Assembly (NCBI GenBank): GCA_963835575.1
Contig: CAWIGG010000002.1
Coordinates: 32,001 to 96,000, forward strand
DNA: 64,000 bases
Direction: 5' to 3'
Origin: an uncultured Spirochaetota bacterium
GTDB taxonomy: Bacteria; Spirochaetota; Brevinematia; Brevinematales; JAOACQ01
Translations under genes and position numbers: made by a program
Notes under the pieces: model-generated
The model's database searches: none
What the model saw: the letters and a program-made list of their open reading frames with translations, nothing else
What the model was told of the DNA's origin: nothing
Part shown: positions 1 through 17,895 of the stretch, one piece after another
Position numbering within the stretch: position 1 is the stretch's first letter
Layout: each line of letters opens with the position of its first letter

Positions 1-1
1 A

Positions 2-2467: not shown

Positions 2468-2500
2468 TTGGATTAGAAAAAAGTTAATTGAGGTTATTAT

Positions 2501-3736
2501 ATGAATGGAAAAAAAAACGATCAAAACGATTTTATCTGTTATATAGGTAATAAGAAAGAAATATCCTTAGAGAAAATACGCTTAAGAATAAAAAATTATC
2601 TGGAACTGGATAATGTTAGTATTCTTGCCGGTGCAGGTACAAGTTTTCATATTGGCGCGCCTATAATAAGAGTAATTCCAAAAGAAATAAATGACTCATT
2701 ATTAAGCGATAAAGAAATAAAAGATTTTTACAAAATTAAAATAGATGAAATCAGTAAAGATAAAAATAACAACAAGGGTATATCTCTCGAAGATTTTCTC
2801 AATTATTTACAGGCAGATAGATTTTGTGCAATAACAAGATCAGAAGACATAACTAATTATGACATTTTAATTAAAAAAATTCAAAGTGAATTATTTTTAC
2901 GATGTAATACTCAGAATACAAACTTACATAATGATTACAAAGAAGATTCTAATTTAAAGGAAAATAGATATTTTTATCATGAGAAATTAATCAAAAAAAT
3001 ACTCCTAAGACCAATTAATCTGAGACGTGTCAATCTTTTTACTTCTAATTATGATTTGGCTTTTGAATATAGTTTTGATAATACAGGAATATATTATATA
3101 AATGGTTTTTCTGGTTTTCAGAGACGATTTTTTCATCCTGAATCCTATGATTATGACGTTTATTATCCTGGTCAAACTACAAGCGGAAAAGTGCATCGTG
3201 CTGAAAAAGTTTTACGTTATTATAAATTACATGGTTCTTTATCTTGGATTTTTACTGAACAAAATGCAAGAAATTTATATGGAATTGAAGAAATTTATAT
3301 TGATAAAAAACCAGAAAACGAATTAGTAATATATCCATGTGTAACAAAAAAAAGATTTACTCTCGATTTGCCTTATTCCGAATTATTCAGACATTTCTCA
3401 AATTCTATTAAACTAAACCAGTCAGTATTGTTTTGTATTGGTTATTCTTTTAATGACGAACATATAAATGATATAATCTATCAGGCTCTTTCAATTCCTT
3501 CTTTTACTCTTTTTGTAATTGATTATAAAGCTACGGATAATAAAGAAATTAATAAATTAAAATCTCTCAATGATCCACGTATTTTAATAATTGAAGGTAA
3601 ATATGCGAAATTCACTAAATTTGTTACTGATGTTTTACCTGATATATATGATGAAAAAGATGAAATCAAGATTACTGAAACAATGAATAAATTATATAAT
3701 ACTGATAATAATGATGAGGAAATTTCAGATGTCTGA
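2501..3736 (+). CDS. SIR2-like NADase of a Sir2-HerA defence system
   Basis: Sirtuin-like motifs ILAGAGTS, FTSNYD, YYKLHGS and IGYSFNDEH; overlaps the HerA start. Confidence 0.88.
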   Translation: MNGKKNDQNDFICYIGNKKEISLEKIRLRIKNYLELDNVSILAGAGTSFHIGAPIIRVIPKEINDSLLSDKEIKDFYKIKIDEISKDKNNNKGISLEDFLNYLQADRFCAITRSEDITNYDILIKKIQSELFLRCNTQNTNLHNDYKEDSNLKENRYFYHEKLIKKILLRPINLRRVNLFTSNYDLAFEYSFDNTGIYYINGFSGFQRRFFHPESYDYDVYYPGQTTSGKVHRAEKVLRYYKLHGSLSWIFTEQNARNLYGIEEIYIDKKPENELVIYPCVTKKRFTLDLPYSELFRHFSNSIKLNQSVLFCIGYSFNDEHINDIIYQALSIPSFTLFVIDYKATDNKEINKLKSLNDPRILIIEGKYAKFTKFVTDVLPDIYDEKDEIKITETMNKLYNTDNNDEEISDV

Positions 3737-5852
3737 TCGTCAAATAGGCCGTGTTGTATCTGTAGATAATTTTCGTGTTTTTGTAAAGCTTGATGATGAT
3801 CTAACAAGTACACATAAAAGCGGTTTTAATGACATTTACGAAGTTGCACGCATCAATTCTTATCTTATCATACCTGTGGGTTCAGATAGAATAGTAGCTT
3901 TAATTACAAGGGTCAAAATGCAGGAAGAACCCGAATTCGATAAAAATAAACAATCTATTTCACTGCCTTCTTCTTCCAGATATATTACCGCAACTATGCT
4001 AGGCACAATTGAAACAAGAAATAATAAAGAAATATTTATTCAAGGCGTATATAATTTTCCGGTTCTCGATAATGTAGTCTGGTTCATTACCGCGGATGAT
4101 TTAAATAAAATATTCGATTATAATGAATCTTCCGAGATAGATTATTCTAAAGACTTTTATCTTCCTATCGGTAATTCTCCAGCTTTTCCGGATTATGATG
4201 TGAAAATCTGCCCTGACCAACTTTTCGTAAAACATACGGCAATTTTAGGAAATACCGGGTCTGGTAAATCGTGTACGCTTACTTCCATATTGAAATCCAT
4301 TTTTAACTATAAATTTAAGACAAAAGTTGCTGGTCAAACGGAACAAAGTGAAGAATGTTATTTGAAGAATGCCCATTTTATTATATTTGATACTAATGGA
4401 GAATATAAAAATGCTTTTATTTCTGAAGGTGAACAATTCGAAAGAATAAATACCCTGGTTATTGATGATAAAGGTCTAAAAGTACCTTACTGGTTTATGA
4501 ATTGGGATGATTTTGATTATTTGTTTGAGCCGGGTTCTGGCACACAAGCTCCAATTTTGAAAAGAGCAATAGGATTGGCTAAAAATATTACAGAAGCTAA
4601 AACAAATAATTTGCTTAATAAAGTTTTGGAAGGATGCCTCGTAGAAATTATAAATTCTGCTTGCGGTTGTGAAGAATGGAAATTCAAAGCTAAAAGAGAA
4701 AAAGATAAAAATTTTGATTGTAATAATCAAATACTTCAATTATCAAAAGAACTGGAAAAGTATTCTGAACTGAATTTAAGAAATATTTCAGAGAAATTAA
4801 AAATTTTAGGTAAAAAAGATTTAACATTAACTGAAAAAACACAATCAATTAATGAAATTGAATTAAGTTATAAAAAATATAAAGAAAGTTTGATTGATCA
4901 ACAAATAATGACAGAAAAGAATATTGATCTTCCAGTATGGTTTAAGTATCAAGAATTAATTACAAAGTACATTGATTCCGCTATTGAAGAACATGAGGGT
5001 TCTTCTTCAAAAATTAGTGAATATGTCTCAACACTTAGATTGCGTTTGGAAGGCTTTTTTAATGACCGGCGTATTGCCGATCCTTTATTATTAAATATTG
5101 AAGCAGAATTTACAGAATCTTTAATAAAATTCATTTCATTTATCTTTGGCGATTTCTACCGATCCTTAAATAATAATGAAACCGATGTTTATTCAGAATA
5201 TTATAATCAATTAAAATATGATCAATTTGAAAATATACCAAATAAAGGAAAAGCAAACCAGATCACAATTCTTGATATGTCACTTATCCCTTTTGATGTA
5301 CTTGAAAATTTGACTGGACTTATAGGTAGACTGATAATTGAATTTGTGGAGCATTTTAAACCTGAGGAAAGAGGTCGGTATCCAATAGTAATTGTATTAG
5401 AGGAAGCTCAAAATTATATACCGGAAAAGAACAGGAAGGACCGGGAATCCATAGCAAAGAAAGTTTTTGAAAGAATAGCCCGTGAAGGACGTAAATATGG
5501 TATTTCATTAATAGTATCCAGCCAAAGACCTTCGGAATTATCAAAAACTGTGTTGTCTCAATGCAATTCATTTATCATTCATCGGCTACAAAACCCTGAC
5601 GACCAAAAATATATAAAAGGACTTGTTTCCAGCGCCAATAGTGATATTTTAGATCAGCTACCGATACTCCCGCAACAGCATGCAATAATCATGGGTGATT
5701 GCGTCCGTACCCCTGTACAAATGAGAATAAATGATATATCACCCAAACCAAATAGTGACAACCCAAGATTTATTGAAAAATGGCTTGAAAGTAATAATGA
5801 TTTTCCTGATTACAAAGAAATTTGTGACAGATGGGAAGAAGGTAAAAAATAA
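3729..5852 (+). CDS. herA: HerA/FtsK-family ATPase (HAS barrel + helicase), partner of SIR2
   Basis: N-terminal IGRVVSV barrel, Walker A GNTGSGKS, Walker B IVLEEAQ, IAREGRKYG and SQRPSEL. ATG at 3729 follows GAGGA and overlaps the SIR2 stop. Confidence 0.88.
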   Translation: MSDRQIGRVVSVDNFRVFVKLDDDLTSTHKSGFNDIYEVARINSYLIIPVGSDRIVALITRVKMQEEPEFDKNKQSISLPSSSRYITATMLGTIETRNNKEIFIQGVYNFPVLDNVVWFITADDLNKIFDYNESSEIDYSKDFYLPIGNSPAFPDYDVKICPDQLFVKHTAILGNTGSGKSCTLTSILKSIFNYKFKTKVAGQTEQSEECYLKNAHFIIFDTNGEYKNAFISEGEQFERINTLVIDDKGLKVPYWFMNWDDFDYLFEPGSGTQAPILKRAIGLAKNITEAKTNNLLNKVLEGCLVEIINSACGCEEWKFKAKREKDKNFDCNNQILQLSKELEKYSELNLRNISEKLKILGKKDLTLTEKTQSINEIELSYKKYKESLIDQQIMTEKNIDLPVWFKYQELITKYIDSAIEEHEGSSSKISEYVSTLRLRLEGFFNDRRIADPLLLNIEAEFTESLIKFISFIFGDFYRSLNNNETDVYSEYYNQLKYDQFENIPNKGKANQITILDMSLIPFDVLENLTGLIGRLIIEFVEHFKPEERGRYPIVIVLEEAQNYIPEKNRKDRESIAKKVFERIAREGRKYGISLIVSSQRPSELSKTVLSQCNSFIIHRLQNPDDQKYIKGLVSSANSDILDQLPILPQQHAIIMGDCVRTPVQMRINDISPKPNSDNPRFIEKWLESNNDFPDYKEICDRWEEGKK

Positions 5853-5986
5853 ATATAAATTTAAAACATAAAAAGCCACTTTTTTAAAATATTTTAAGGA
5901 AGTATTAAAAATGGCAGCGCTAACTCTAATCTCCGCAGTTATTCCGGCGGAGACAAAGATGGGATTCTTTTTCCAAGCCATATATT

Positions 5987-6382
5987 AAGCTTTCCTCGGG
6001 CACTCCCGAAAACTCCGGCGCGGTCGCCGTCCTTCCACTGCCTGCGTTTTCGGGAGTGCCCTCGTCAAGCTTCCTGTTTTCAACCCTTTGAGCACTGCCT
6101 CACTCTTAACATAATTTTTCTTATGGTCAAGCAAGCGAATTAATCGCACTTTTTTATACTGATATTCCTCTATTTTTTTATAAAGTTATTTTATAATTTA
6201 TTCTTTTTTCTACCGATGGCTCAATGGAGTAAACGCCTGCCCATAAGAAGAAATTATGTTAAGTAGCAAAGGATTTAATAATTTTTATATCCTGCATCTT
6301 TCTTATTCTCTAAAATCTTTTCTTTATTGTTGCTTTCTCAACCTTTGCTAACGTTCGGCGCGCTCAAAGGGTTGAAAACAGG
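5987..6382. repeat. Nested inverted repeats forming a large branched ssDNA/RNA structure
   Basis: Stem pairs: 5998-6013/6046-6061 (16 bp perfect), 6073-6093/6362-6382 (21 bp perfect), 6105-6126/6241-6263, 6264-6272/6342-6350. Confidence 0.85.
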
Positions 6383-6570
6383 GCTGGCGCATTTCGTTAT
6401 TATTTTCCACCCTGCCCGCCCGTATAGAATGAAGCAAAAAGCATAGCTTTTTTTATGAGCTGTCCCGTCCGTCCCGTAGATATTCTTTTTCTCTTTCAGG
6501 TTCCAATTTCGGGACTCCCCTTTGTCCTTTTTCACTTGTCAGTACCGTTTTAAAACCGTGCTCTTTAAAT

Positions 6571-6790
6571 ATTTTCACCCTGCCTTTTTTATTATACCGT
6601 GAGAAAAATAAAATAGTCCACTTCGCCAAGGGTAAAGTCGCAAGCTCCCGATTTAAAAATATTTTATTGTCTTAAAAACAGAAATGCTTTTTTTAAAAAC
6701 CAAGGGTCTTTATTACAGGTTAAAATATTTTTAAATCGCCCTTGCTATTTTATTTTTCTCGCTGGTGTTGTATTTAGTCAGGGTTAGAAA
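6571..6790 (+). promoter_or_regulatory. Candidate Frpo-like single-stranded DNA promoter
   Basis: Stems 6649-6666/6721-6738, 6627-6632/6739-6744, 6601-6616/6745-6760 and 6577-6582/6779-6784 enclose an 18x18-nt bubble containing ATTATA (6591-6596, TATAAT on the minus strand). Confidence 0.6.
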
Positions 6791-6822
6791 TTTTATTATA
6801 ACTCAAATTTTAGGAGGTATTT

Positions 6823-7203
6823 ATGTCAGCTTATATTGTCAGCAAAGATCACATTTCTGCGTTAGTCAGTTTTTGTAATGCGAAAAATGTTTATGTGTAT
6901 TATGATGGGAAAAAGTTTGATGTCACGAATCTTGACGCTATTGGTCAGATTCTCGTGAATGAAAACTACCGTTCAGTTAATACCCGGTATAGTTCAAACG
7001 ATGCCCCATTTGTTTACGAGTTTCAATATCTGCAACGGCATTTTACGCTTATTCAGATTATTAAACTATGTCATTGCTATAATTATCAGTCATGTGAAAC
7101 GGAAGATTATTATGAATCTCTTGCCTATGCGATTGTGAGAGGTATCGAATCTCATGCTGTCCGGTTATTACCTGGCTATGAAGAAGCGGAATGGGGTTTA
7201 TAG
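6823..7203 (+). CDS. Hypothetical protein (126 aa), mobile-element type
   Basis: Clean ORF with strong AGGAGGT Shine-Dalgarno; no motif recognised. Confidence 0.8.
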   Translation: MSAYIVSKDHISALVSFCNAKNVYVYYDGKKFDVTNLDAIGQILVNENYRSVNTRYSSNDAPFVYEFQYLQRHFTLIQIIKLCHCYNYQSCETEDYYESLAYAIVRGIESHAVRLLPGYEEAEWGL

Positions 7204-7257
7204 TTTTGAAGCGTTATTGAAACGGAATTGAAGCGGAGAAGGTCTCCTTAAGAAATA

Positions 7258-7296
7258 AAAAAGCCCCTGCATTTTATAGATTTATGCAGGGGTTTT
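7258..7296. terminator. Bidirectional intrinsic terminator
   Basis: AAAAAGCCCCTGCAT...ATGCAGGGGTTTT between convergent genes. Confidence 0.7.
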
Positions 7297-7321
7297 AGTT
7301 TGCGATATCCGGCCGGGATTA

Positions 7322-7651
7322 TCAGCTCGGCATAAACGGAGTTGTAGGAGCTGTCCCATTGTTTGCGTTTTTGTAGTTTATATATCCGCTCACATACAGG
7401 TTAAAACCGCTCATCTGCTGACCACTTGCAGCACTATTCCAGGCGTCTTTTGTCGCCTGTGTTTCCGCCTGCCAGGCCGCTACCGCCGCCGTAAAATAGT
7501 CCCTGACTTTAAGCTGATTTTCAGTCTGGGGATTTGAAGGTACAGTATACTGCCTGCTATAGTTGATCCCCTTCCATTTTGCGAAAACCATCGTATCGGC
7601 AAATGTGCCGCTTGCGTCAAGGGACATCAAAGGCCCTGTTACTTTTGCCAT
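7322..7651 (-). CDS. Phage/virus-like hypothetical protein (MAKVTGPLMSLDASG..., DUF6266-like)
   Basis: GGAGGTGG SD. The pattern ASGTF...VFAKWKG..Y.R.Y..P.NP.T..Q..VR resembles small virus-associated proteins; family assignment is from memory. Confidence 0.55.
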   Translation of the reverse strand: MAKVTGPLMSLDASGTFADTMVFAKWKGINYSRQYTVPSNPQTENQLKVRDYFTAAVAAWQAETQATKDAWNSAASGQQMSGFNLYVSGYINYKNANNGTAPTTPFMPS

Positions 7652-7988
7652 AGTATTTCCACCTCCTTAAAGGATATAATTTTAAACAAATATTTTTTAC
7701 CCTTTATTAATAGTCATTTTTAAGGGTATCGAAATGAAATAAATGGTTGAATTTAATCGGCAGGGAAGAATGACTGAATAAAACAAACAGGTTACATACG
7801 GAAAGTTAATAAATATTATCGGAAAGCAAGATATTATGGAGATCAATGCTGGGGAATAATAGGTTAAAAAACCTATTACGAACTATTTAAAACCCTTAAA
7901 AACTATTTGTAAAGCTCATTGGAAGTTTTTAAAACCATAAAAATATTTATGGTATTATTTATGATTATATTTATATTCTCTGTTTTCC

Positions 7989-8017
7989 TTGACAGTACCT
8001 TAAATTTGTCTTAATAT
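7989..8017 (+). promoter_or_regulatory. Sigma70-like promoter upstream of the Panacea TA pair
   Basis: TTGACA-N17-TAATAT. Confidence 0.45.
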
Positions 8018-8159
8018 TTAGGCATACTGTTAACAATACTATTCAAATACTTGACGGAGAGAATTTTCCGTGAAATCGATTTTGAAATAGAAATATCTGT
8101 TCTATTTATCATATTCTTAATTAGAATTCCGAATATTAAATATGAAGGGGGCGTAGCTT

Positions 8160-8708
8160 ATGATTAGTTATAAATTTAATGAAACAAAAGCAATTCAGTT
8201 AATCGCTTTTCTTCTTAAGCAAGATAATACAAAAGATTATAATAATTATACAAAAATTATCAAACTTTTATACTTGGCAGATAGAGAAGCATTAAATAGG
8301 TGGGGAAGATCAATAACAAAAGATATTTATGCAAATCTTCCAGCGGGGCCGATTGTAAGTGAAACTTATGATTTAATTAAGGAAATGAAAAAAGGGGCTA
8401 ATGAATTTATTTGTTCTAAAAATGAATATGATTTGGCATTAGTAAGTGATCCTGGTGATGATGAATTAAGTAATGCAGAAATTAAGCTACTTAGAGAAAT
8501 ATCTGAAAAATATAAGGATAAAACATATCAAAAAATGGTTGATGAGGTTCATCGTCTTCCTGAATGGGTTGATCCAAGACCTAGAGGGAAAAAATCATTA
8601 TCAGTTGAAAATATTTTAGAAGTGTTAAATAAAACAGATGATGAAATTAAAGAAATTGAAGTATCAAACAAAGAAGAAAACTATATAATTAATGTCTTAG
8701 GTTTATAA
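8160..8708 (+). CDS. Panacea-domain (DUF4065/SocA-like) antitoxin
   Basis: KIIKLLYLADREAL..WGRSIT.D.Y..LPAGPI..., ELS..EI..L and VH.LPEW motifs. Confidence 0.82.
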   Translation: MISYKFNETKAIQLIAFLLKQDNTKDYNNYTKIIKLLYLADREALNRWGRSITKDIYANLPAGPIVSETYDLIKEMKKGANEFICSKNEYDLALVSDPGDDELSNAEIKLLREISEKYKDKTYQKMVDEVHRLPEWVDPRPRGKKSLSVENILEVLNKTDDEIKEIEVSNKEENYIINVLGL

Positions 8709-8709
8709 G

Positions 8710-9087
8710 ATGAAAAAAGGGGGGACATTCTACGGCAACCCAGAAGGAGCCTCTCAACCCCATCTACACTGTATAATTACAGACTCATCCGAGCATAAAG
8801 AAAAAGGTAAATGTCTTTTTGTTCATATGATTTCATATAATGAAGGTAATCCGTATTCAGACCGTTCTTGTATTTTAAATAAAGGTGATCACCCATTTAT
8901 TACACGTCCAACTTGCATAAATTATGCTGCTGCAACGGAAATAGATTTAGAGAATCTTGAATTTGCTGTTAGTCGATGTTTGTGTGAAGAAAATGCCCCT
9001 CTATCCTTAGAAATCTTAGAGAGAATACGTGAAGGGGCAAGACTTTCTGATCATTTACCTAGAAAATATAAATACTTATTCGAATAA
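8710..9087 (+). CDS. Putative PemK/MazF-like toxin partner of the Panacea antitoxin
   Basis: Starts 1 nt after the antitoxin stop; PHLHCIIT...D.SCIL..GDHPFI.R.TCINY pattern. Confidence 0.55.
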   Translation: MKKGGTFYGNPEGASQPHLHCIITDSSEHKEKGKCLFVHMISYNEGNPYSDRSCILNKGDHPFITRPTCINYAAATEIDLENLEFAVSRCLCEENAPLSLEILERIREGARLSDHLPRKYKYLFE

Positions 9088-9421
9088 AATAAAGAAATTT
9101 AATCATTCAAAGAAAGAATTATGAATTTTCATCATAATAAAATAAGCAATAATTATTATTTCTAAATATTGTGTTAATTTTTCGACACTATAAAAAGGAT
9201 TAAACAGAGTTTTTAGAGTCCGTAAAAAAGGCATTGAATATATTAAAATTAATAGTAAAACAATAAAATAACTATAAGGTTCCATTGTAAAACAAAAAAA
9301 TAACAAAAAAGTAAACGATATTAGAAATCTTATAATAATTACTTTTCCCTAAAAATGTTATTGTTTTGTTACCAAATAGGTTTTATAATTCACTTATCTT
9401 ATTGCTATTATATATATTAAC

Positions 9422-9527
9422 AACTCTATAAGCAAAAACTGTGACAAAGCAAAATGTGGGCGCATCCCCGCAGGGCCGATAGGCCCGTAGCGTTTACACC
9501 GGGTTGTACGAAGTTTGCCGGGCCGAA
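9422..9527 (-). other. Truncated terminal attC-like site
   Basis: Minus strand reads TTCGTAC-AAC CCGGTGTAAACG..., then an internal GGGCC/GGCCC hairpin and TTTTGCTTTGTCACAGTTTTTGC; the complementary L' arm is missing. Confidence 0.6.
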
Positions 9528-9530
9528 TTT

Positions 9531-10058
9531 CTATTTAAATATTTCATTAGCATCAATTTCAGCTGGCAGATTATCTTTTGTTAAATATCCTGGTAATCCC
9601 CACCATTGATTATAGTTATCATCATAATAATTAATAATTATTCTAATCTGTTCGTTATACAATTTTAATGAATCTAATAAATTCTGATAAATATATTTCT
9701 TTTCTTCAATTGATTTAACTTGAGCAAATCCAGCATCTTCTGGTGCAGGTTGAGGCATAACTATGGATTTTTGGGAAATATTCTCTTTAATATTATTATA
9801 ATAATTTTTTTCTATTGTTGATCTTTCATTTACAAATTTGTCTAATTCTTTAATATAAAGTGTATAAAATACAAATGAATGCTTCAGATTTTCCTCCCTT
9901 TTAACCAATTCCCTATAGAATTTAATACACATTTCATAGTTATATCTATAATTATTGAATGAAAATATAGTTGGTTTCTTTAAAGATTTAAAACATTTAT
10001 TATTTAGGTTGAGAATATCATAAAATTTTGGAATTAAATTACTATTTTCTTTTTCCAT
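9531..10058 (-). CDS. Cassette-encoded hypothetical protein (cassette D)
   Basis: ATG at 10058 with AGGGGA SD; AT-rich; flanked by inverted repeats 9503-9527/10101-10125. Confidence 0.75.
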   Translation of the reverse strand: MEKENSNLIPKFYDILNLNNKCFKSLKKPTIFSFNNYRYNYEMCIKFYRELVKREENLKHSFVFYTLYIKELDKFVNERSTIEKNYYNNIKENISQKSIVMPQPAPEDAGFAQVKSIEEKKYIYQNLLDSLKLYNEQIRIIINYYDDNYNQWWGLPGYLTKDNLPAEIDANEIFK

Positions 10059-10118
10059 AAATGTTCCCCTTATATAACAATTTAAAATCGAATAACCAGC
10101 TTCGGCCCGGCAAATTTC

Positions 10119-10272
10119 GTACAACGGTGCGCGTAGAAGAAGTTTGGCGGCCCGTCAGGGTTGGCGTCTTTTTTGCATCCCACGCGCAAAAAAGATGACA
10201 AAGCCAAATTTGCCGCAGGCCGAGCACCGCCCGGAGCCGCGCGAGGACGGAGCGGAGCTTCTACGCGTTGTT
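10119..10272 (-). other. attC-like site 1 (R'' side interrupted by the IS)
   Basis: AAC(10123-25) GGTG CGCGTAGAAG ... CTTCTACGCG TT GTT(10270-72); internal hairpins TTTGGC/GCCAAA and TCTTTTTTGC/GCAAAAAAGA. Confidence 0.8.
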
Positions 10273-11994
10273 GAGTCTGTCGAAAAAGTGATATTTAATG
10301 TAAATTATTATCGATATAGCTTAAAATAATGAATGAAATAAATCAATAGCGGAAGGTTATATGGCAAGATACAAGACAGTTAATTATGAGCAGATGGAAA
10401 TGATACCGCTCAATTTTTCAGATCAGCTGATCGAAGGAACATATGAACACACACTCAATTTCCTAATCGAGGAAAAGGCTGACCTTTCCTGTTTTGATAT
10501 AAATTATAAAAATGATAAAACAGGCTCGAAAGCGATTTCTCCGGCAATTCTTCTGAAAATAATCCTTTTTGCCTATTCGAAAGGTATTACTACATCACGC
10601 AGGATTGAGGAAGCTTGCCGGGTGAATGTCATCTTCAAAGCCCTGTCCGGGAATACCGTTCCAGACCATTCCACTATAGCCGCTTTTGTTACCGGTATGA
10701 AAGACCGGATTAAAATAGTATTTCAGTTTGTGCTGATGGTCTGTTCTTCTGCGGGATTGATCGGCGGGGACATGTTCGCCGTTGACGGCTGTAAATTGCC
10801 TTCAAACGCTTCTAAAGAATGGAGCGGTACATTCAAAGACCTGAAAAAGAAACAGGAAAAGTTTGAAAAGCTGGCGGCATTTCTACTGGAAAAACACGCG
10901 CAAGCTGACTGCTCCGGCGAAAATGAAAAGTCTAAAGCGCTTCAAAAAAGATCGGAAAAAATACGGAAGAAAGCGGAGAAAATCGATGCCTTTCTCAAAT
11001 CCCAGAATCCCAAATACGGCAAGCGGGGACGTGAAAACCAATCGAATATTACCGATAACGAAAGCGCGAAAATCAAGAGTTCCCACGGTGTGATACAAGG
11101 TTATAATGGACTTGCGGTAGTGGATTCAAAGCATCAGGTGATTACCGCGGCGGAAGCTTTTGGTTTAGGCCAGGAAGGGGAAGTATTGAAGCCGATGGTT
11201 GAAATAACGGAGGAAAATTTAAGCGTGATAAAAGGAGAAACAAATCCGCTGGAAGGAAAAACAATACTGGGGGACACGAATTATTTCAGCGAAGAAAATC
11301 TAAAATATCTGGCGGAAGAAAAGAAGATGGAAGCTGTGATACCGGACAATCAATTTCGAGGGAGGGATGAACGGTTTACCGATCGGGGAAGGTTCAAGCC
11401 GAAACCGATGAAATACCGGGAACACGATTTTGAAAAAAATGAAGCTGATAATACTTATATATGCCCGAATGGAAAAATATTAAGCTATAAGGGATACCAG
11501 AGGCAATTGAGTAATTTCGGCCATAAATATCAGGCCAGGCAGGCGGATTGTTCAAAATGCGGGAAAAGGGGACAATGCTTAAAACATCCCGATAAGACAA
11601 GGCAAAGAACATTATATCTGGTGGACAAAAGAGGGGATAAAAACTATTCAAAAGAAATGGTAAATAAAATTGATCTGCCGGAAATCAGGGATTTGTACAG
11701 CCGGAGGATGGGAATAATTGAGCCGGTATTCGGTAACATCCGTTCTTGTAAAGGTATGGACCGTTTTACGCTCAGGGGTAAGAGTAAGGTTAATATCCAG
11801 TGGCTTTTGTTCTGTATAGTGCATAATATTGGTAAAATCCAGATATTTGGTAAGATTTAAGGGGGTGTTCATAGCCATAATACCGGCTTGAAATTGGAAA
11901 AATGGAAAATCCGGATAGAGAAATGAAAAATGATACTCTATCCGGCTTTCAGAAGACAGTTTTTATTCTCGTTTTTGGCTTTTTCGACAGGGTC
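10273..11994 (+). mobile_element. IS1182-family insertion sequence with 3-bp GTT target duplication
   Basis: Terminal IRs GAGTCTGTCGAAAAAG and CTTTTTCGACAGGGTC; GTT at 10270-72 and 11995-97. Confidence 0.88.
10361..11860 (+). CDS. IS1182-family DDE transposase
   Basis: LLKIILFAYSKGITTSRRIE, PDHSTIA, AVDGCK, GYN, C-terminal Cys cluster (CPNG...CSKC...C) and IEPVFGNI. Confidence 0.9.
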   Translation: MARYKTVNYEQMEMIPLNFSDQLIEGTYEHTLNFLIEEKADLSCFDINYKNDKTGSKAISPAILLKIILFAYSKGITTSRRIEEACRVNVIFKALSGNTVPDHSTIAAFVTGMKDRIKIVFQFVLMVCSSAGLIGGDMFAVDGCKLPSNASKEWSGTFKDLKKKQEKFEKLAAFLLEKHAQADCSGENEKSKALQKRSEKIRKKAEKIDAFLKSQNPKYGKRGRENQSNITDNESAKIKSSHGVIQGYNGLAVVDSKHQVITAAEAFGLGQEGEVLKPMVEITEENLSVIKGETNPLEGKTILGDTNYFSEENLKYLAEEKKMEAVIPDNQFRGRDERFTDRGRFKPKPMKYREHDFEKNEADNTYICPNGKILSYKGYQRQLSNFGHKYQARQADCSKCGKRGQCLKHPDKTRQRTLYLVDKRGDKNYSKEMVNKIDLPEIRDLYSRRMGIIEPVFGNIRSCKGMDRFTLRGKSKVNIQWLLFCIVHNIGKIQIFGKI

Positions 11995-12013
11995 GTTATA
12001 TGCCGTTGCCCAA

Positions 12014-13054
12014 TCATTCTTTTAACCCGCTTTCTGTAATTTTTAATATTACCGATTTAACAATGTCCAAGAATACAGATATTTCTTTTTCAGAATATGA
12101 CTTACTAATTACCCACTTTAGATTTGATTGAGCATTAACAAAATAACCTGTCTTTACAAGATTCTCTTTATAGTAATCTATAATAATTTCAGGATTATTG
12201 ATTTTCTTTTGAATTTCTTCAAAACCGGAATAAATACTTTGTTTAAAAACTGATTTTGGAGGATAACCAAATAATAATGCGATTTTTTTATCACTTATAT
12301 TTAGATTTAAAGAATATCCTTTTGAACCCCAAATAAACATTAAGGTATTGACTTTTGCAAACTCGATAATTTTATTGAAAACCAATTTTCCATTTTCATC
12401 TAAAGATTCTAAAAAGTCTTTCTGATTTACTTTTGGTAATGAAGCAGATTGAACATTTTGTTTTTTATATTCTTCATCGCCTATTATCATATCTGAAGAA
12501 ACGACTTTTTCTCCATTTTTTGATTCAAAATATTTAAATTCTAAACAATTAATATCAATTCCTTTTTGTCTTAAGAAAACAGCAGTTTGTTTAATTTCTT
12601 TGCTAATTTCCTGAGCGATAATTAGTAAACGCATATTTTTATTAAATGATACTTGTTGATCCGGTTCTTGAATAAAATATTGATTGTGATAATCTTCTAA
12701 ATTTGATTCTTCTCCATAATATTCTTTAAATATTTCATTTAATTGCTCATAATTCAAATTTTCAATAAATGATGCATATTCAAGTATTTGTGCGATGGTT
12801 TCTCTGGGTGTTTTATCTCTTTTTAGTTCAATGACAACAACATTGCCAATTTTATCTATTCCCAATAAGTCAATATAAGCATTGAAATTAGTTGATACCT
12901 GTCTTCCAATAATTAATATTTTTGTATTTTCAAAGAAATAATCCGGATTCTTTTCCAGTAAAATTTCTAAATCTTTTTCTATATTATTAATTTTGAAATT
13001 TTGTTCTTTGTAAGGAGTGAAATTTCCTTCATTGTTTATTGTAAATAATTTCAT
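12014..13054 (-). CDS. NucS/DUF91-like PD-(D/E)XK nuclease with C-terminal extension (cassette C)
   Basis: EKDLE..LEKNP, IGRQV, IDLLGID..G..VVIELKR, AQILEYAS; GGAGG SD; flanked by IRs 11995-12016/13072-13093. Confidence 0.75.
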   Translation of the reverse strand: MKLFTINNEGNFTPYKEQNFKINNIEKDLEILLEKNPDYFFENTKILIIGRQVSTNFNAYIDLLGIDKIGNVVVIELKRDKTPRETIAQILEYASFIENLNYEQLNEIFKEYYGEESNLEDYHNQYFIQEPDQQVSFNKNMRLLIIAQEISKEIKQTAVFLRQKGIDINCLEFKYFESKNGEKVVSSDMIIGDEEYKKQNVQSASLPKVNQKDFLESLDENGKLVFNKIIEFAKVNTLMFIWGSKGYSLNLNISDKKIALLFGYPPKSVFKQSIYSGFEEIQKKINNPEIIIDYYKENLVKTGYFVNAQSNLKWVISKSYSEKEISVFLDIVKSVILKITESGLKE

Positions 13055-13086
13055 TTGTTTCCTCCAAAAGCTGATTGGGCAATGGC

Positions 13087-13272
13087 ATATAACGGCACAG
13101 ACAAGCCGACGTTTTTTCGGCTTAGAGCCAGGCTTGCCGCTCTTAGCCGAAAAAATGTGGTGAACTTTTTGTCCTTCTCCTCCGGCCTACTTCTCAAAAA
13201 GTGAACCTGAGGAACGGAACCCGGAGCGACTGAGCGTAGGGTGAGTACCGGAACGTTTGTCTGTTGTTAGCT
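13087..13272 (-). other. attC-like site 2
   Basis: AAC(13091-93) GGC ACAGACAA ... TTGTCTGT T GTT(13266-68); branched internal hairpins shared with site 3. Confidence 0.85.
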
Positions 13273-13447
13273 GCTGTGCCGGTTGCCGTGTATCATGAGC
13301 ATATTTTATTTTTATTCCAAGTTTTTTTGATAGTTTTTCAACATAATTATGAGTTTCTTTAACAATTTTTAATAAGTCATAATCATTTTCAGCAGACATT
13401 TTTCTTTGAACAATTTCTTTATTTTTGATAATTTCATCTAAAATCAT
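13187..13447 (-). CDS. Small protein, probable antitoxin partner of the PIN toxin (cassette B)
   Basis: Directly follows the PIN gene, with SD AAGGAGG in the PIN 3' end; reads through into attC site 2. Confidence 0.6.
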   Translation of the reverse strand: MILDEIIKNKEIVQRKMSAENDYDLLKIVKETHNYVEKLSKKLGIKIKYAHDTRQPAQQLTTDKRSGTHPTLSRSGFRSSGSLFEK

Positions 13448-13451
13448 AAAT

Positions 13452-13919
13452 TTATTCCTCCTTATTTAGTAATTCTAAAGGTGTGATAATTTCAGGTATA
13501 TACAATCCCAATCTAGTATTAATAATTCTGATGTGTTGTTTTTTATTTCCATTTGCCAAATGAGTACAATTCCAGGTCAATAAAAAATCGATTTTATAAT
13601 AAGACGCATAAGATAAATGAAGTGCATCTCCACCTAATTCTTTAGGCATTAAATAATTGTCAATATAAATCTGTGCGATATCAAGAACATCTTTATTTGG
13701 AGGTAAAACGGTAAGTTTCAAAGCGTTTTGAAGAACTTGTTCTTTTCTTGGATAATTACTTTCTCCAAGCTCTTTTAATGTTTCTTCTGATAAGGATACT
13801 TTATAAAATTTCTTTTCTTCTTTCCACCATTTTTTTGTGATATCAATAAGAAATTGAATCTCTTCCCTTTCATCATAAAGAAAACTCAGAACTGTAGAAT
13901 CTAAATAAACAGATTTCAT
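13452..13919 (-). CDS. PIN-domain (VapC-like) toxin (cassette B)
   Basis: VYLDSTV, S.ETL.EL, DALHLSYA, LLTWNCTHLAN and IITP motifs. Confidence 0.85.
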   Translation of the reverse strand: MKSVYLDSTVLSFLYDEREEIQFLIDITKKWWKEEKKFYKVSLSEETLKELGESNYPRKEQVLQNALKLTVLPPNKDVLDIAQIYIDNYLMPKELGGDALHLSYASYYKIDFLLTWNCTHLANGNKKQHIRIINTRLGLYIPEIITPLELLNKEE

Positions 13920-14024
13920 AAAATATCCCACTTATTTTTTATTAATTATAATACTAAAATGAAATTATCACACTTTTTTTATTGCGTTTTTTGTTTTATA
14001 ACAAAGCCAGGCAACCGGCATTTC

Positions 14025-14200
14025 AGCTAACGGTGGCGGACAAACGACGTTTGCAAGCCTTAGAGCCAGGCTTGCCGCTCTTAGGCTTGCAAATGTGGTG
14101 AACCTTTTGTCTTTCTCCTCCGTCCTACCCAACAAAAGGTGAACCCGAGGAGCGCAGGCGTCGCAACGCCGAGCACCGCAGCGTTTGTCCGCTGTTGGGC
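14025..14200 (-). other. attC-like site 3
   Basis: AAC(14029-31) GGTG GCGGACAAACG ... CGTTTGTCCGC T GTT(14194-96). Confidence 0.85.
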
Positions 14201-14581
14201 GATGGCGGCCAATTCTCTGAATGAATAAGATTTTCCGCAGGCAATTATTTCGCTGAATTTCTCAGTCTTTCTATAAATATCATTACTTGACAACGGCACT
14301 TATTTTCTTACATATGCCTGCGACCATAACCCTTCTCTTTATTCATTATAATCAAAAATGCCCATAATAATTTTATCAAACAGCCTTTATTTTTTCAAAT
14401 AAGAATTCTTAAAAAATAATATTTTCAAGTAAAAAAAACAACATAAAAATAATTTTATTTCTATTATAACTAATTTATAAGCCAAATATCTAAATTATCT
14501 CTTACAACCTGAACTACGCAGAGAAATATCCGTCCTTCCCGGGCATTTTTGAATGTTTATTATACAGCATTGGCCGCTTTC

Positions 14582-14683
14582 GCCCAACTCTATATAAAAG
14601 AATTTCGTTTTTTATGAAAATAATTACTACGATTTATTGTATAAAATACGAAATTGAATCAGATTATTTTAATAAGCTAATAT
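14582..14683 (-). other. Putative attI site at the 3' end of the integrase gene
   Basis: Minus strand TATATAGA|GTTGGGC (GTTRRRY) starts cassette A. No attC hairpin lies upstream, only AT-rich DNA with an AATTTCGT/ACGAAATT inverted motif. Confidence 0.7.
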
Positions 14684-15745
14684 TTAAGTGTCAAGATTAG
14701 TTTTTTTTAAGCTTAGAGTTACATCAAGGGGGCTGATAATATTTTTAACTATGTTTTTTGAAATATGGGTATAGATCTCTGTCGTTTTTAGACTTTTGTG
14801 CCCCAGAAAGGTCTGGATATACCGGATATCTGTTCCATTTTCCAGAAGGTGTGTCGCGAATGAATGCCTCAGACAGTGAATACTGCATTTTTTATTGATC
14901 CCGGTTTTTATAACGGCATTTTCAAATACTTTTTCCGCTGTTCTTATCGTTATGTGGCTGTTTATGTCATAACTTGGAAAAAGCCAGATGAGAGTATTGT
15001 AATGTTTGGTATAATCATCCATCAATGAAAGGATGATATCCGAAAGTATGGTGATCCTGTCTTTATTCCCTTTGGCCTTCCTGATAAATATCTGCTTTCT
15101 TTCACGGTCAAGGTCTTCAATTTTTAGTTTGACAGCTTCGCTGACCCTTAATCCGGCCGAATATATAATGGAGATTAAAAGTTTGTGTTTTAAATTATCG
15201 ATACCGGATAGTAATTTTATGATTTCCCCTGTATTTAAAATCACAGGAAGCTTTTTGTCTTTTTTTGCCCTGGGTATGTATACCGTAAAATCCTTCTTCA
15301 ATATTTTACCATAGAAATATTTAATCGCGTTAACGGCGCAATTAATAGTTGACGAGGACAGGTTTTCTTCATCCGCGAGATAATAAAGGTATTCCATAAT
15401 TTCAGGCCTGGTTATTAATTCCGGTTTTTTCCCATGATATTCAAGCATATTTTTATTGTAATAAAGATATGAGGCTATTGTCTGAGAACTGTATTTTCTG
15501 ATCTTAAGCTCTTTCTCCAATACGGTCAGATAATGATCGTAAGAGAATAATTCGTGATAACTTTCCGGGAATAATTCCTTTAGCCGGATAATATTTTCTT
15601 TTTTCGGGTTTATTAACCAGCATTTATTCTGCTTGTCCCATTTGCTTCCGGAAATTGTATGCATTTTCTCAATTAAATCTATGTCATAAAGGAAACACAC
15701 CTCAATTTCCCCGCTATTATTATATCGCATCTTCACATCTTTCAT
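14684..15745 (-). CDS. Integron-like tyrosine recombinase with N-terminal HARP-like domain and no IntI-specific insertion
   Basis: SAM-like domain YSSQTIASY, KKLPVIL; catalytic motifs GLRVSE, KGNKDR, HCLRHSFATHLLE, LGHKS and TTEIYTH. Only ~23 aa separate KDR from WLFP. Confidence 0.85.
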   Translation of the reverse strand: MKDVKMRYNNSGEIEVCFLYDIDLIEKMHTISGSKWDKQNKCWLINPKKENIIRLKELFPESYHELFSYDHYLTVLEKELKIRKYSSQTIASYLYYNKNMLEYHGKKPELITRPEIMEYLYYLADEENLSSSTINCAVNAIKYFYGKILKKDFTVYIPRAKKDKKLPVILNTGEIIKLLSGIDNLKHKLLISIIYSAGLRVSEAVKLKIEDLDRERKQIFIRKAKGNKDRITILSDIILSLMDDYTKHYNTLIWLFPSYDINSHITIRTAEKVFENAVIKTGINKKCSIHCLRHSFATHLLENGTDIRYIQTFLGHKSLKTTEIYTHISKNIVKNIISPLDVTLSLKKTNLDT

Positions 15746-16032
15746 ATTTTTCTCCTCTTTTACCTTAATACCTGAAACTTGTTAAATGGTATGTAGATTA
15801 TGTTTTATTGTTGTAAATAAATATTAACATTTAGCTCAATATTAAGAATATAAATCGAATTTCGTTAATTAATTACGAAATATGGATTGCTGTCTTCCCG
15901 GGTTGAAGGCGGCTGATTACGGCTTTAATATGGAAGGAGTGTATTTGCCGCATGGGAAGGAGTATAATACTGTCAGCGCAAAAAAAGTTTTTTTATTAAA
16001 ATGTATTATTATCGCCTGAAATTTATTACTCT

Positions 16033-16061
16033 TTGATAAATAACCTGTCTTCTATTATAAT
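16033..16061 (+). promoter_or_regulatory. Sigma70-like promoter for lepA
   Basis: TTGATA-N17-TATAAT. Confidence 0.55.
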
Positions 16062-16080
16062 ACTATAGTGTAAATTTGGA

Positions 16081-17895
16081 GTGAATATGTCTTACAGGGA
16101 TCAGATCAGGAATTTTTCCATCATCGCTCATATCGACCATGGCAAGTCGACGCTGGCCGACAGGATCCTGGAAAAGACCGGCATCATTGATAAAGCGAAA
16201 GGCGGGGAGCAGGTCCTCGATTCCATGACGGTTAAGAAGGATCATGGCATTACCGTCAAGGCGCATACGGTTTCCGTGCCGTACAAAGCGAAAGACGGGA
16301 TTGATTACACGCTGAACCTGATCGATACGCCGGGCCATGTCGATTTTTCCTACGAAGTTTCCCGGAGCCTCGGCGCGTGCGAGGGCGTTCTTCTTTTGAT
16401 CGACGCCTCGCAGGGCGTTCAGGCGCAGACGCTCTCCAATTTTTATCTTGCCTTCGAGCAGAACCTGGAGATCATTCCTGTGATCAATAAAATCGACCTG
16501 CCCAGCGCCCATATCGATATGGTAAACGAACAGATCGAAAAAGACCTCGGCCTTTCTCCGGAAAGCGCGCTCAAGATCAGCGCCAAGGCGGGCATCGGCA
16601 TCGAGGAAGTTCTGGAAGCGCTTGTCACTAAAATCCCGCCGCCGAAGGGCGACGAAAACGCCCCGCTCAAGGCCCTTGTTTTCGATTCTTATTACGACAT
16701 CTACCGCGGTGTGATCGTCAAGGTGCGGGTTTATGAAGGGAGCGTCAGGCATGGCGACCAGATTTCCTTTATGCTTTCCAACCGCGAGTACCAGGTGGAG
16801 GAAGTCGGGCTCATGCGGATGAGCCTGCTGAAAAGGGACGAGCTCCGTGCCGGCGAGGTTGGTTACATCATCGCCGGGATCAAGTCCATCTCGGAATTCG
16901 GCGTCGGCGATACGATCACAACGAAGATTCATCCCTGTGATAAGCCGCTGGCCGGCTACAAGCCGCCCAAGCAGTATGTTTTCGCCGGGCTTTTTCCCAT
17001 CGAGGGCGAGCAGTTTGATGAGCTTCATGAAGCGCTTTATAAGCTCAAGCTGAACGACGCCTCTCTCTCATTCATAAAGTGGAATTCCGGCGCCCTGGGC
17101 ATGGGCTTCAAGTGCGGCTTCCTGGGCCTTCTGCATCTTCAGATCATCCAGGAGCGGCTGGAAAGCGAGTTCAACCTTAGTATCATCTCCACAGTACCGT
17201 CTGTTGAATACCGGATCAAGCTGACGAACGGTAACACTATTTTTATAGAGAACGCCACGGAACTTCCTGAGAACAGCAGCGTCTCCCAGATTGAGGAGCC
17301 GTGGGTGACAGCTCGGATCATACTGCCGAACGATTTTCTCGGCACGGTCCTCGACCTGATCCAGAAAAGGCGCGGCATCCAGAAGAACATGCTCTATATC
17401 GATTCCACACGTGTCGAGGTCAAGTGCGAGCTGCCGCTGGCGGAGATCATCTACGATTTTTACGACAAGCTGAAATCCTTCTCGAAAGGCTACGCCTCCT
17501 TCGATTACGAATTCCTCGAGTTCCGCCGCGGCAAAGTTGTCAGGATGGACATCCTTGTGAACGGCAAGCCCGTGGACGCGCTGGCCCAAATGGTCCATGA
17601 GGACAATGCCTACGCCCGCGCGCGTTCCGTCTGCGAAAAGCTCCGCGAGCTCATTCCCCAGCATCTCTTTCAGATCCCGGTCCAGGCTGCGATGGGAGGC
17701 AAGATCATCGCGCGCGAGACGATCAAGGCACTGCGCAAGGACGTGACGGCCAAATGCTACGGCGGCGACATCACCCGGAAGCGCAAGCTCCTCGAGAAGC
17801 AGAAGGAAGGCAAAAAGCGGATGAAGACCATCGGCAATGTGGACATTCCGCAGGAAGCCTTTATCGAAGTCCTCAAACGGGGCGACGATGAATAG
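16081..17895 (+). CDS. lepA: Elongation factor 4
   Basis: IRNFSIIAHIDHGKSTLADR, DTPGHVDF, KCYGGDITRKRKLLEKQKEGKKRMK. Confidence 0.97.
   Translation: MNMSYRDQIRNFSIIAHIDHGKSTLADRILEKTGIIDKAKGGEQVLDSMTVKKDHGITVKAHTVSVPYKAKDGIDYTLNLIDTPGHVDFSYEVSRSLGACEGVLLLIDASQGVQAQTLSNFYLAFEQNLEIIPVINKIDLPSAHIDMVNEQIEKDLGLSPESALKISAKAGIGIEEVLEALVTKIPPPKGDENAPLKALVFDSYYDIYRGVIVKVRVYEGSVRHGDQISFMLSNREYQVEEVGLMRMSLLKRDELRAGEVGYIIAGIKSISEFGVGDTITTKIHPCDKPLAGYKPPKQYVFAGLFPIEGEQFDELHEALYKLKLNDASLSFIKWNSGALGMGFKCGFLGLLHLQIIQERLESEFNLSIISTVPSVEYRIKLTNGNTIFIENATELPENSSVSQIEEPWVTARIILPNDFLGTVLDLIQKRRGIQKNMLYIDSTRVEVKCELPLAEIIYDFYDKLKSFSKGYASFDYEFLEFRRGKVVRMDILVNGKPVDALAQMVHEDNAYARARSVCEKLRELIPQHLFQIPVQAAMGGKIIARETIKALRKDVTAKCYGGDITRKRKLLEKQKEGKKRMKTIGNVDIPQEAFIEVLKRGDDE

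Follow-up and report, generated by a model that had tools for sequence, protein, structure and literature searches.

Integron biology ties recombination between hairpin sites to a helix inserted in the integrase, which reads bulged bases of the attC site. A hairpin is also used by recombinases of the Xer type: in the CTX phage, XerCD, which carry no I2-like insertion, act at dif on a hairpin of the single-stranded phage DNA, and the insertion is thus not needed in principle. Xer binding arms are 10-11 bp long, and inverted Xer-type recombinase sites also bound the gene modules known as pdif modules in Acinetobacter plasmids. Here, we analysed a stretch of 64,000 nucleotides (hereafter the window; positions 32,001 to 96,000 of contig CAWIGG010000002.1, forward strand) from an uncultured, Brevinematales-like bacterium of the Spirochaetota, which contains an integron-like array of four cassettes (9414-14683) just downstream of a tyrosine recombinase gene and on the same strand. 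Each cassette is bounded by two long inverted arms of its own sequence that share a fixed mismatch at their eleventh position, and the recombinase lacks the insertion that defines integron integrases.

Integron integrases were defined throughout by the IntI-specific additional domain near patch III (Messier and Roy 2001; IntegronFinder). Genome surveys have set aside recombinases without this domain as "not IntI": PMC4889954 deems insertion-less recombinases near attC sites not to be IntI, and 21 of them are listed in its supplements. The same survey of complete genomes records no complete integron in Firmicutes. According to PMC9668308, archaeal integrases carry the insertion and typical spirochaete integrons are reversed. 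Which arose first, the attC sites or the domain that reads them, is presented as a paradox in PMC4792948, whose discussion also mentions the CTX phage.

The array shares several traits with chromosomal integrons. A tyrosine recombinase gene adjoins a series of mostly promoterless cassettes, the sites between cassettes run from ...AAC to GTT... with an inner stem, a variable interior and a putative G|TT crossover, and the first bases of each cassette are complementary to its own R'' box and not to that of its neighbour. As in chromosomal integrons, an insertion sequence (IS) is present at one of the sites, and the related array of a Chryseobacterium plasmid described below holds an IS110 element and a group II intron. 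Recombinase and cassettes lie on one strand, as in the reverse-orientation spirochaete integrons of the Treponema denticola type (PMC4909258 and PMC9668308). Unlike integrons, the window carries a recombinase devoid of the IntI-specific insertion in the I2 helix region; the inner stems of the window type have no extrahelical bases; the outer stem measures 14-25 bp instead of 9-12 bp and shows a fixed A/G break at position 11; the cores vary between 84 and 346 nt; and the hosts of such long arms include Firmicutes.

Likeness to Xer systems was also found. The recombinase aligns with XerA (5hxy) without gaps, and the predicted duplex arms on either side of the spacer measure 10-11 bp, as in XerA/dif and XerC/D-dif; the window gene, in contrast, adjoins a cassette array and would not serve a single dif, and its product has an extra N-terminal domain. 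CTX and XerCD offer a hairpin of single-stranded DNA that imitates a two-arm site, but this case concerns one phage and one chromosomal site, with no array, no cassette-specific arms and fixed arm sequences. The pdif modules differ in relying on conserved double-stranded XerC/XerD sites, not on hairpin arms unique to each module, and in having no dedicated recombinase gene adjoining them.

The initial annotation had proposed that every cassette carries its own terminal inverted repeat, and this was borne out for four of the four cassettes that make up the array. The arms of cassette 1 (14194-14588, 395 bp, like all the cassettes on the minus strand), located at 14194-14213 and 14569-14588, match over 20 nt with two mismatches at positions 10 and 11, or over 23 nt with one further mismatch. 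In cassette 2 (13266-14031) the arms 13266-13287 and 14010-14031 match over 22 nt with three adjacent mismatches at positions 9-11, while those of cassette 3 (11995-13093), at 11995-12016 and 13072-13093, show a single mismatch at position 11 over 22 nt and can be extended to 23 nt. Cassette 4 (9503-10125) has the longest arms, 9503-9527 and 10101-10125, which match over 25 nt with one mismatch, again at position 11. All the left arms start with GTT and all the right arms end with AAC, the four sequences are mutually different, and the arms are much GC-richer than the cassette interiors (~25-30% GC). An anchored scan for GTT/AAC inverted repeats (score +1/-2, threshold 13, spacing 100-3500 nt) returned four pairs in 9400-14700, against a mean of 0.03 and a maximum of 1 in 300 dinucleotide-preserving shuffles, nine of which contained one pair, and no pair in the remaining 48 kb (16001-64000). 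The four arm pairs in 9400-14700 are not due to chance.

The mismatches were then compared among 22 cassettes from 11 loci, namely the window and ten related loci, by placing all of them in a common orientation and aligning each left arm with the reverse complement of the right arm. Pairing occurred in 22/22 cassettes at positions 1-7, in 21/22 at position 8, in 19/22 at position 9 and in 14/22 at position 10, where the eight exceptions were all A/T. Position 11 was paired in none of the 22 cassettes and always showed A on the left and G on the right, after which pairing resumed in 22/22 cassettes at positions 12-14, fell to 13-18 of 22 at positions 15-18 and to 10/22 at positions 19-20, and reached the background from about position 21. 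A second recurrent break, A/T at position 16, was observed in 8/22 cassettes. The paired positions hold two to four different bases each, indicating that it is the shape that is conserved and not the sequence. On the antisense strand position 11 forms a T·G wobble and on the sense strand a C·A mismatch; in the eight exceptions position 10 gives T·T and A·A, respectively. Every mismatch run counted in the arms of the window includes position 11, and these mismatches represent one conserved feature at position 11, sometimes extended to positions 9-11, and not noise or decay.

A scan blind to position 11 returned A/G at this position in 15 of 67 pairs, as compared to five in three shuffles (~1.7 per shuffle), and the mirror state in the four cassettes of locus L046, whose array is reversed and lies upstream of the recombinase gene. 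The arm polarity, A on the left and G on the right, is uniform within each array (4, 4, 3, 3 and 2 cassettes), including a cassette of locus L001 with reversed genes. This 2.2-kb cassette (13092-15273 of L001) contains three open reading frames (ORFs) opposite to the recombinase strand and has arms of the usual polarity, showing that cargo orientation is independent of arm polarity.

As controls, 15 cassettes located beside true integron integrases were examined (loci L072, L063 and L079, and a class 1 array in L082). Perfect runs between a cassette's own arms measured 7, 9, 11, 5 and 8 bases, plus two poorer cases, in L072, 10, 9, 9 and 8 bases in L063, 9 and 9 bases in L079, and 8 (dfrA14), 9 (qnrVC1), 12 and 12 (aacA4) bases in the class 1 array. 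The control arms were paired to position 9 in 12/15 cassettes, in 6-10/15 at positions 10-13 and in 1-5/15 at positions 14-22; the longest perfect run was 12 bases and pairing resumed after the break in none of the 15. The value of about 7 bp that the initial annotation had given for canonical R''/R' complementarity was hence too low, since the controls pair over about 9-12 bases; the greater length of the arms, 14-25 bp, held when measured across the homologous arrays. In PMC4909258, the own-cassette complementarity of the 7-bp boxes is complete in 51/58 Treponema-type cassettes, and canonical attC features are given in PMC7439510.

Between the AT-rich units, with their minus-strand ORFs, the array contains GC-rich elements of 144-172 nt, hereafter cores. 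Core 1 (14032-14193, minus strand, as are all the cores) is a GC-rich element of 162 nt that reads, on the plus strand, AAC-GGTG-11 bp stem ... 11 bp stem-T-GTT, with a branched interior. Core 2 (13094-13265, 172 nt) is a close relative of core 1 according to both alignment and folds, and core 3 (10126-10269, 144 nt) reads AAC-GGTG-CGCGTAGAAG ... CTTCTACGCG-TT-GTT on the plus strand. At the array end, the last core (9414-9502, with an approximate left limit) is degenerate, half of its inner stem being gone. On the plus strand the cores of the window thus consist of AAC, 2-4 nt, a stem of 8-11 bp, a branched interior, the stem partner, 1-2 nt and GTT, and the R''(..AAC), L'', L', R'(GTT..) layout of attC sites is present in three complete cores and a degenerate one. 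When the cores of all loci were placed in the common orientation, a perfect inner stem of 8-12 bp was found between a short 5' spacer (0-4 nt) and a longer 3' spacer (0-7 nt), with interiors spanning 84 to 346 nt and a spacer asymmetry that is constant relative to the arm polarity. Predicted folds and direct reading revealed no bulged (extrahelical) bases in the inner stems of the cores of the window, L001, L046 and L080. The inner stems of L061 contain A/G mismatches and no bulges, and further A/G asymmetries occur in other core stems.

The excised circle had been expected to fold a site with a long outer stem, and the hybrid sites of the array to pair little; the comparison of in-array and circularised folds agreed on both counts. 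In the window, where two hybrid junctions could be measured, pairing extended over 3 and 4 bases, and in the other loci over 0-8 bases; the hybrids folded the core only. Circularised sites gained the whole outer stem, with an increase in stability of 14 kcal/mol over the hybrids at the two measurable window sites and of 1-14 kcal/mol across the nine sites measured. The antisense strand gave the more stable fold in all nine circularised sites, by 1-17 kcal/mol.

The tyrosine recombinase, P0001 (14684-15745, minus strand, 353 aa), matches the Pfam families Phage_integrase and Phage_int_SAM_4 and, judging from its sequence, appears to be related to integron integrases and to XerA. With the NCBIfam models, P0001 reached 213.7 bits for integron integrase and 215.8 bits for XerA, in both cases below the cut-off (265 and 220 bits, respectively). 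The match with VchIntIA was split in two pieces, between which 27 residues of P0001 face 69, and over query residues 73-342 IntI1 is 43 aa longer. The alignment gaps correspond to two segments of ~31 and ~10 residues, which are missing in P0001 and in the recombinases of 10/10 other long-arm loci and present in 9/9 integron integrases compared, IntI1 included. P0001 thus lacks the ~41-residue insertion (I2 helix region, near patch III) that defines integron integrases, and as the defining insertion is missing the system is not a canonical integron. The AlphaFold2 (AF2) model of P0001 (pLDDT 84) shows no helix at the insertion site; the best PDB match, both by sequence and by fold, was VchIntIA (2a3v), followed by XerA in the fold comparison. 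In an unrooted tree of 74 recombinases, calculated by a quick maximum-likelihood method, a branch with full SH-aLRT support (100%) set eight proteins carrying the insertion apart from 65 that lack it.

P0001 also has an extra N-terminal domain of ~70 aa (residues 1-70, 15536-15745), which is modelled as strand-strand-helix, repeated twice, with pLDDT values of 77-91, and is kept in the closest homologues. Pfam returned sub-threshold matches to HARP in two homologues (E ~5e-4) and to DUF5710 for P0001. These searches yielded no convincing family for the domain and the protein atlas nothing above 0.83, and a whole-protein fold search of P0001 gave matches to the recombinase body only and none to the N-terminal domain. 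In L046, where the array has long arms, the N-terminus of the recombinase is much shorter.

A profile search of genome contigs, based on an alignment of 24 homologues, retrieved 79 loci. Long-armed cassettes adjoin the recombinase in nine of them (L001, L002, L003, L007, L013, L018, L020, L046 and L061), and a tenth relative with long-armed cassettes beside its recombinase, L080, was found by tblastn on the Chryseobacterium plasmid NZ_CP041688. Together with the window, the long-arm hosts of the 11 loci belong to Spirochaetota, Bacteroidota and Firmicutes, and one of the loci is on a plasmid. In the window, 95 nt separate the recombinase stop codon from the first GTT; this distance is 37-312 nt in 10/10 loci and 79-122 nt in seven of them. 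The corresponding junction of the window (14589-14683, minus strand), which extends from the recombinase stop codon to cassette 1 and ends on the minus strand in ...TTTTATATAGA|GTT, is attI-like and presumably represents the attI site. A loose junction motif resembling TATA(A/G)A..(G/A)A|GTT was recognised in most of the 10 loci. The position of the gene beside the array argues for a dedicated role of the recombinase. At 2650-2710 of L020, upstream of the first cassette, GAGACCTATA occurs twice as a direct repeat and once partly inverted (TATAGGTCT); these junction repeats may be accessory binding sites.

Some candidates from the scans were not retained. The anchored pairs in L044 and L064 were set aside as long IS-type repeats and those in L024, L052 and L079 as lying close together, and a weak pair flanking the recombinase gene of L004 (9832 / 12196) was treated as chance.

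Evidence of movement was provided by the Chryseobacterium array. An ORF-less module, consisting of 14-bp arms, a 10-nt loop and a 134-nt core, is found at three places of this array (10122-14770 of L080), with 171 of 172 columns invariant and a single base differing in one copy. The identity extends from GTT to the base preceding the next GTT, and the three contexts have different flanking sequences on either side. These bounds are those predicted by a G|TT crossover, and show that a core moves together with the unit before it. No comparable repeated module is seen in the window. The initial annotation had concluded that each unit moved independently, which is in keeping with both the cassette-specific arms and the triplicated module with its exact GTT bounds. 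The array of L080 also holds an IS110 element and a group II intron reverse transcriptase. IS110 and group II introns are kinds of elements known to target attC sites.

On the whole, we consider it probable that the locus is an integron-like system with a G|TT crossover and a folded single-stranded substrate, likely the antisense strand, in which a wobble and a distal clamp replace the extrahelical bases and the helix that reads them. On the minus strand the mobile unit would consist of TT-arm, cargo, arm-AAC and the GC-rich core, followed by G, with the crossover taking place at G|TT as in integrons. The two arms of a cassette, which lie at opposite ends in the array, would meet around the core only upon excision as a circle. 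The outermost part of the folded single-stranded site would then be the outer stem of 14-25 bp formed by the arms, interrupted 11 bases away from the crossover triplet by its fixed irregularity (T·G in the antisense strand, C·A in the sense strand); inside it would lie the short asymmetric unpaired spacer, the perfect inner stem of 8-12 bp and the variable interior. The two duplex arms of 10-11 bp flanking the spacer would mimic both binding arms of an Xer-type site. The wobble, one helical turn from the crossover, would favour folding of the antisense strand and is probably a mark of strand or register. A recombinase without the inserted helix would thus be matched by sites without the extrahelical bases that this helix reads, which the long outer stem, free in sequence and fixed in shape, appears to replace. 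From the sequences and predicted folds we infer that the recombinase acts on the array sites, that it does so on single strands, and the purposes of the wobble and of the extra stem length.

Several observations weigh against this interpretation. That recombination takes place, that it uses single strands and that cassettes still move in this genome today is inferred, and the array of the window may be inactive, as its last core is degenerate and an IS lies inside it. According to Cury et al., the known integron integrases require the inserted helix to recombine attC sites. Long arms were found in just 9/51 insertion-less loci outside the alphaproteobacterial clade, or in 7 of the 42 such loci with at least 1 kb downstream, and in 0/20 loci of the alphaproteobacterial clade, these fractions being lower bounds for arrays because many contigs stop right after the recombinase gene; the recombinase family is therefore much wider than the array function, or the scan misses arrays. 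Locus L017 has repeated cores yet returned no match in the anchored scan. As to the statistics of the arms, 7 of the 22 cassettes (those of L013 and L018, two of L061 and three of L080) were chosen by eye after the rule had been formulated, and among the seven that of L018 and that of L080 at 11500 needed reading by eye; the L018 cassette, although chosen by eye, also passed the scan blind to position 11. For one control row, L063 at 1144, the script chose a wrong anchor, and reading by eye gave a run of 9. Finally, minimum-energy folds are lenient, the arms of canonical cassettes pairing across the cassette in 12/26 folds.

The hairpin cores of L017 (12865-12960 and 14519-14621) are separated by 1.65 kb, and the recombinase gene upstream of them encodes a sister of P0001 on the tree. 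These cores escaped the own-arm scan because the units resemble one another in their arms. When L017, L004, L009 and L022 were searched for repeats without anchoring, repeated cores appeared in L017 alone.

Long-armed cassettes were found in none of the eight loci with a true integron integrase. A search of the literature, covering full texts and few subscription journals, returned no description of arms beyond the R box, of the position-11 rule or of arrays served by insertion-less recombinases. The array fits best among the integrons, as a variant of them, and there is a fair possibility that it represents a separate and widespread class. We propose only tentatively that the long-arm loci form a widespread clade of cassette-capturing systems (Spirochaetota, Bacteroidota, Firmicutes, plasmids) distinct from classical integrons, whose Xer-like recombinases never gained the I2 helix and recognise folded single-stranded cassette sites by means of a long outer stem, free in sequence and bearing a fixed T·G wobble one helical turn from the crossover, in place of extrahelical bases. 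Should this be true, the clade might either preserve the condition from which integrons arose or have reached a second solution independently, and would bear on the helix/attC paradox put forward in PMC4792948. If the system is active, a wider range of bacteria would be able to collect cassettes, a class of arrays would have been missed by current search tools, and a natural test case would be offered for single-strand recombination evolving from Xer-type enzymes. Arms of any sequence together with one wobble would also constitute a design rule for structure-specific recombination sites.

A different role of the arms within the same system was considered, namely that they act inside the array, pairing across the cassette when the DNA is single-stranded and looping the cargo out. 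In minimum-energy folds of single-stranded core-cassette-core segments, the window arms paired across the cassette in 8/8 cases (four cassettes, both strands), with 18-23 of the 20-25 arm bases engaged with their partner, and at least 7 of the first 10 arm positions were paired in 25/28 folds of the other long-arm cassettes, against 12/26 for canonical ones. Such pairing, if it took place in cells, would render the crossover fully duplex next to the adjoining core and would bring together the two crossover points of the cassette; the extra arm length would serve to close a loop of 0.4-2 kb, and excision, which the initial annotation had supposed to be disfavoured with respect to integration, would be helped and not hindered, being tied to long single-strand exposure during replication, conjugation or transformation. 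A stem of 10 bp would moreover be enough in the circle, where the arms have just the core hairpin between them, so that the circle alone would leave arms of 20-25 bp unexplained. Equilibrium folds, however, ignore kinetics, the proteins that coat single strands and the extent of single-stranded DNA, and the arms of canonical cassettes pair in nearly half of such folds too. Nor does arm length follow cassette length, as 14-bp arms close both a 10-nt loop and cassettes of 600-870 nt, and 18-bp arms close 2.2 kb. We regard this role as unlikely, if worth retaining. It is improbable that the locus is an ordinary integron whose arms are just the long end of routine R'' complementarity, functionless and produced by drift or as GC clamps. 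Such a view would accord with the established own-cassette complementarity of the 7-bp boxes reported in PMC4909258 (51/58, see above), with the 9-12 bp often reached in the controls and with the contrast between GC-rich arms and cassette interiors of ~25-30% GC, but the defining insertion of the integrase is missing and no bulged bases are present in the inner stems. Drift, moreover, predicts neither an identical break at position 11 in 22/22 cassettes from three phyla nor the resumption of pairing beyond it, which was seen in 0/15 canonical cassettes.

Two explanations outside the integron framework were also weighed. Inverted repeats around gene-sized segments beside a tyrosine recombinase recall invertible segments, in which the enzyme flips units between repeats as in fimbrial switches or Bacteroides invertons, and the genes of one L001 cassette do lie on the opposite strand. 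The repeats differ between units beyond GTT and a loose consensus, however, the conserved cores would be left without a role, and inversion through the arms would swap their polarity, which is uniform in every array; in addition, the module of L080 has been copied to new places and not flipped, which makes inversion very improbable. Inverted repeats of 20-25 bp at both ends are a usual trait of transposons, and the units could in theory be small transposons or miniature inverted-repeat transposable elements (MITEs), each inserted with its own repeats into GC-rich tandem repeats. This origin is hardly credible: no unit contains a transposase, the separate IS1182 element aside, repeats that differ would demand one enzyme per unit, target-site duplications are absent beyond the shared GTT/AAC, and arms and cores belong together, given the position-11 rule and the constant asymmetry of the spacers.

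As to the cargo of the integron-like array, no convincing ORF was found in cassette 1; ORF-less integron cassettes sometimes carry promoters. Cassette 2 contains two ORFs, 13452-13931 (159 aa) and 13187-13447 (86 aa), the end of the latter extending into core 2, and neither showed a family match in Pfam or NCBIfam. The ORF of cassette 3 (12014-13054, 346 aa) gave a weak match to a NucS-type nuclease domain in the same two databases, beyond which nothing was detected among the cassette proteins, including the ORF of cassette 4 (9531-10068, or to 10124 given a TTG start), for which Pfam and NCBIfam returned no family. Nothing in 1-16500 matched Rfam at E values up to 1.

Cassette 3 is separated from its core 3 by an IS1182-family insertion sequence (10273-11994, plus strand), with a transposase at 10361-11860 that scored 277 bits, above the cut-off, with the NCBIfam model transpos_IS1182, and terminal repeats, read from the sequence, GAGTCTGTCGAAAAAG and CTTTTTCGACAGGGTC. 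The element is placed exactly at the GTT/AAC crossover triplet. Direct reading of the sequence located a GTT on either side of it (10270-10272 and 11995-11997), which looks like a 3-bp target duplication and indicates insertion at the crossover triplet itself.

The GC content of the array region is 25-30%, that of positions 1-16000, which comprise the array and its neighbourhood, ~25-35%, and that of the remainder of the window (16000-64000) mostly 40-55%; judging from their low GC, the cassettes look foreign to this genome. The adjoining LepA is 86-88% identical to proteins of metagenome-assembled genomes (MAGs) of Brevinematales and Brevinematia, and the cumulative GC skew climbs over the entire window.

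A fifth anchored pair, 6076-6093 / 6362-6379, had at first been counted as a cassette and was dropped. Its complementarity runs outward beyond GTT, with 21 nt perfectly matched (6073-6093 / 6362-6382), and position 11 shows no mismatch. A nested palindrome cluster of a different kind occupies 5987-6760; it includes a hairpin of ~27 bp with a 32-nt loop at 5987-6073 (AAGCTT...GAAAAC / GTTTTC...AAGCTT) and further repeats at 6105-6117 / 6251-6263, 6601-6616 / 6745-6760 and 6649-6666 / 6721-6738. Genes of defence type lie past the array end, namely an Eco57I/MmeI-like restriction-modification methylase (2-2467) and a SIR2_2 protein (2501-3736) with a HerA-like ATPase (3711-5852), together with a SocA/Panacea antitoxin-domain protein (8160-8708) followed by a small partner ORF (8710-9087).

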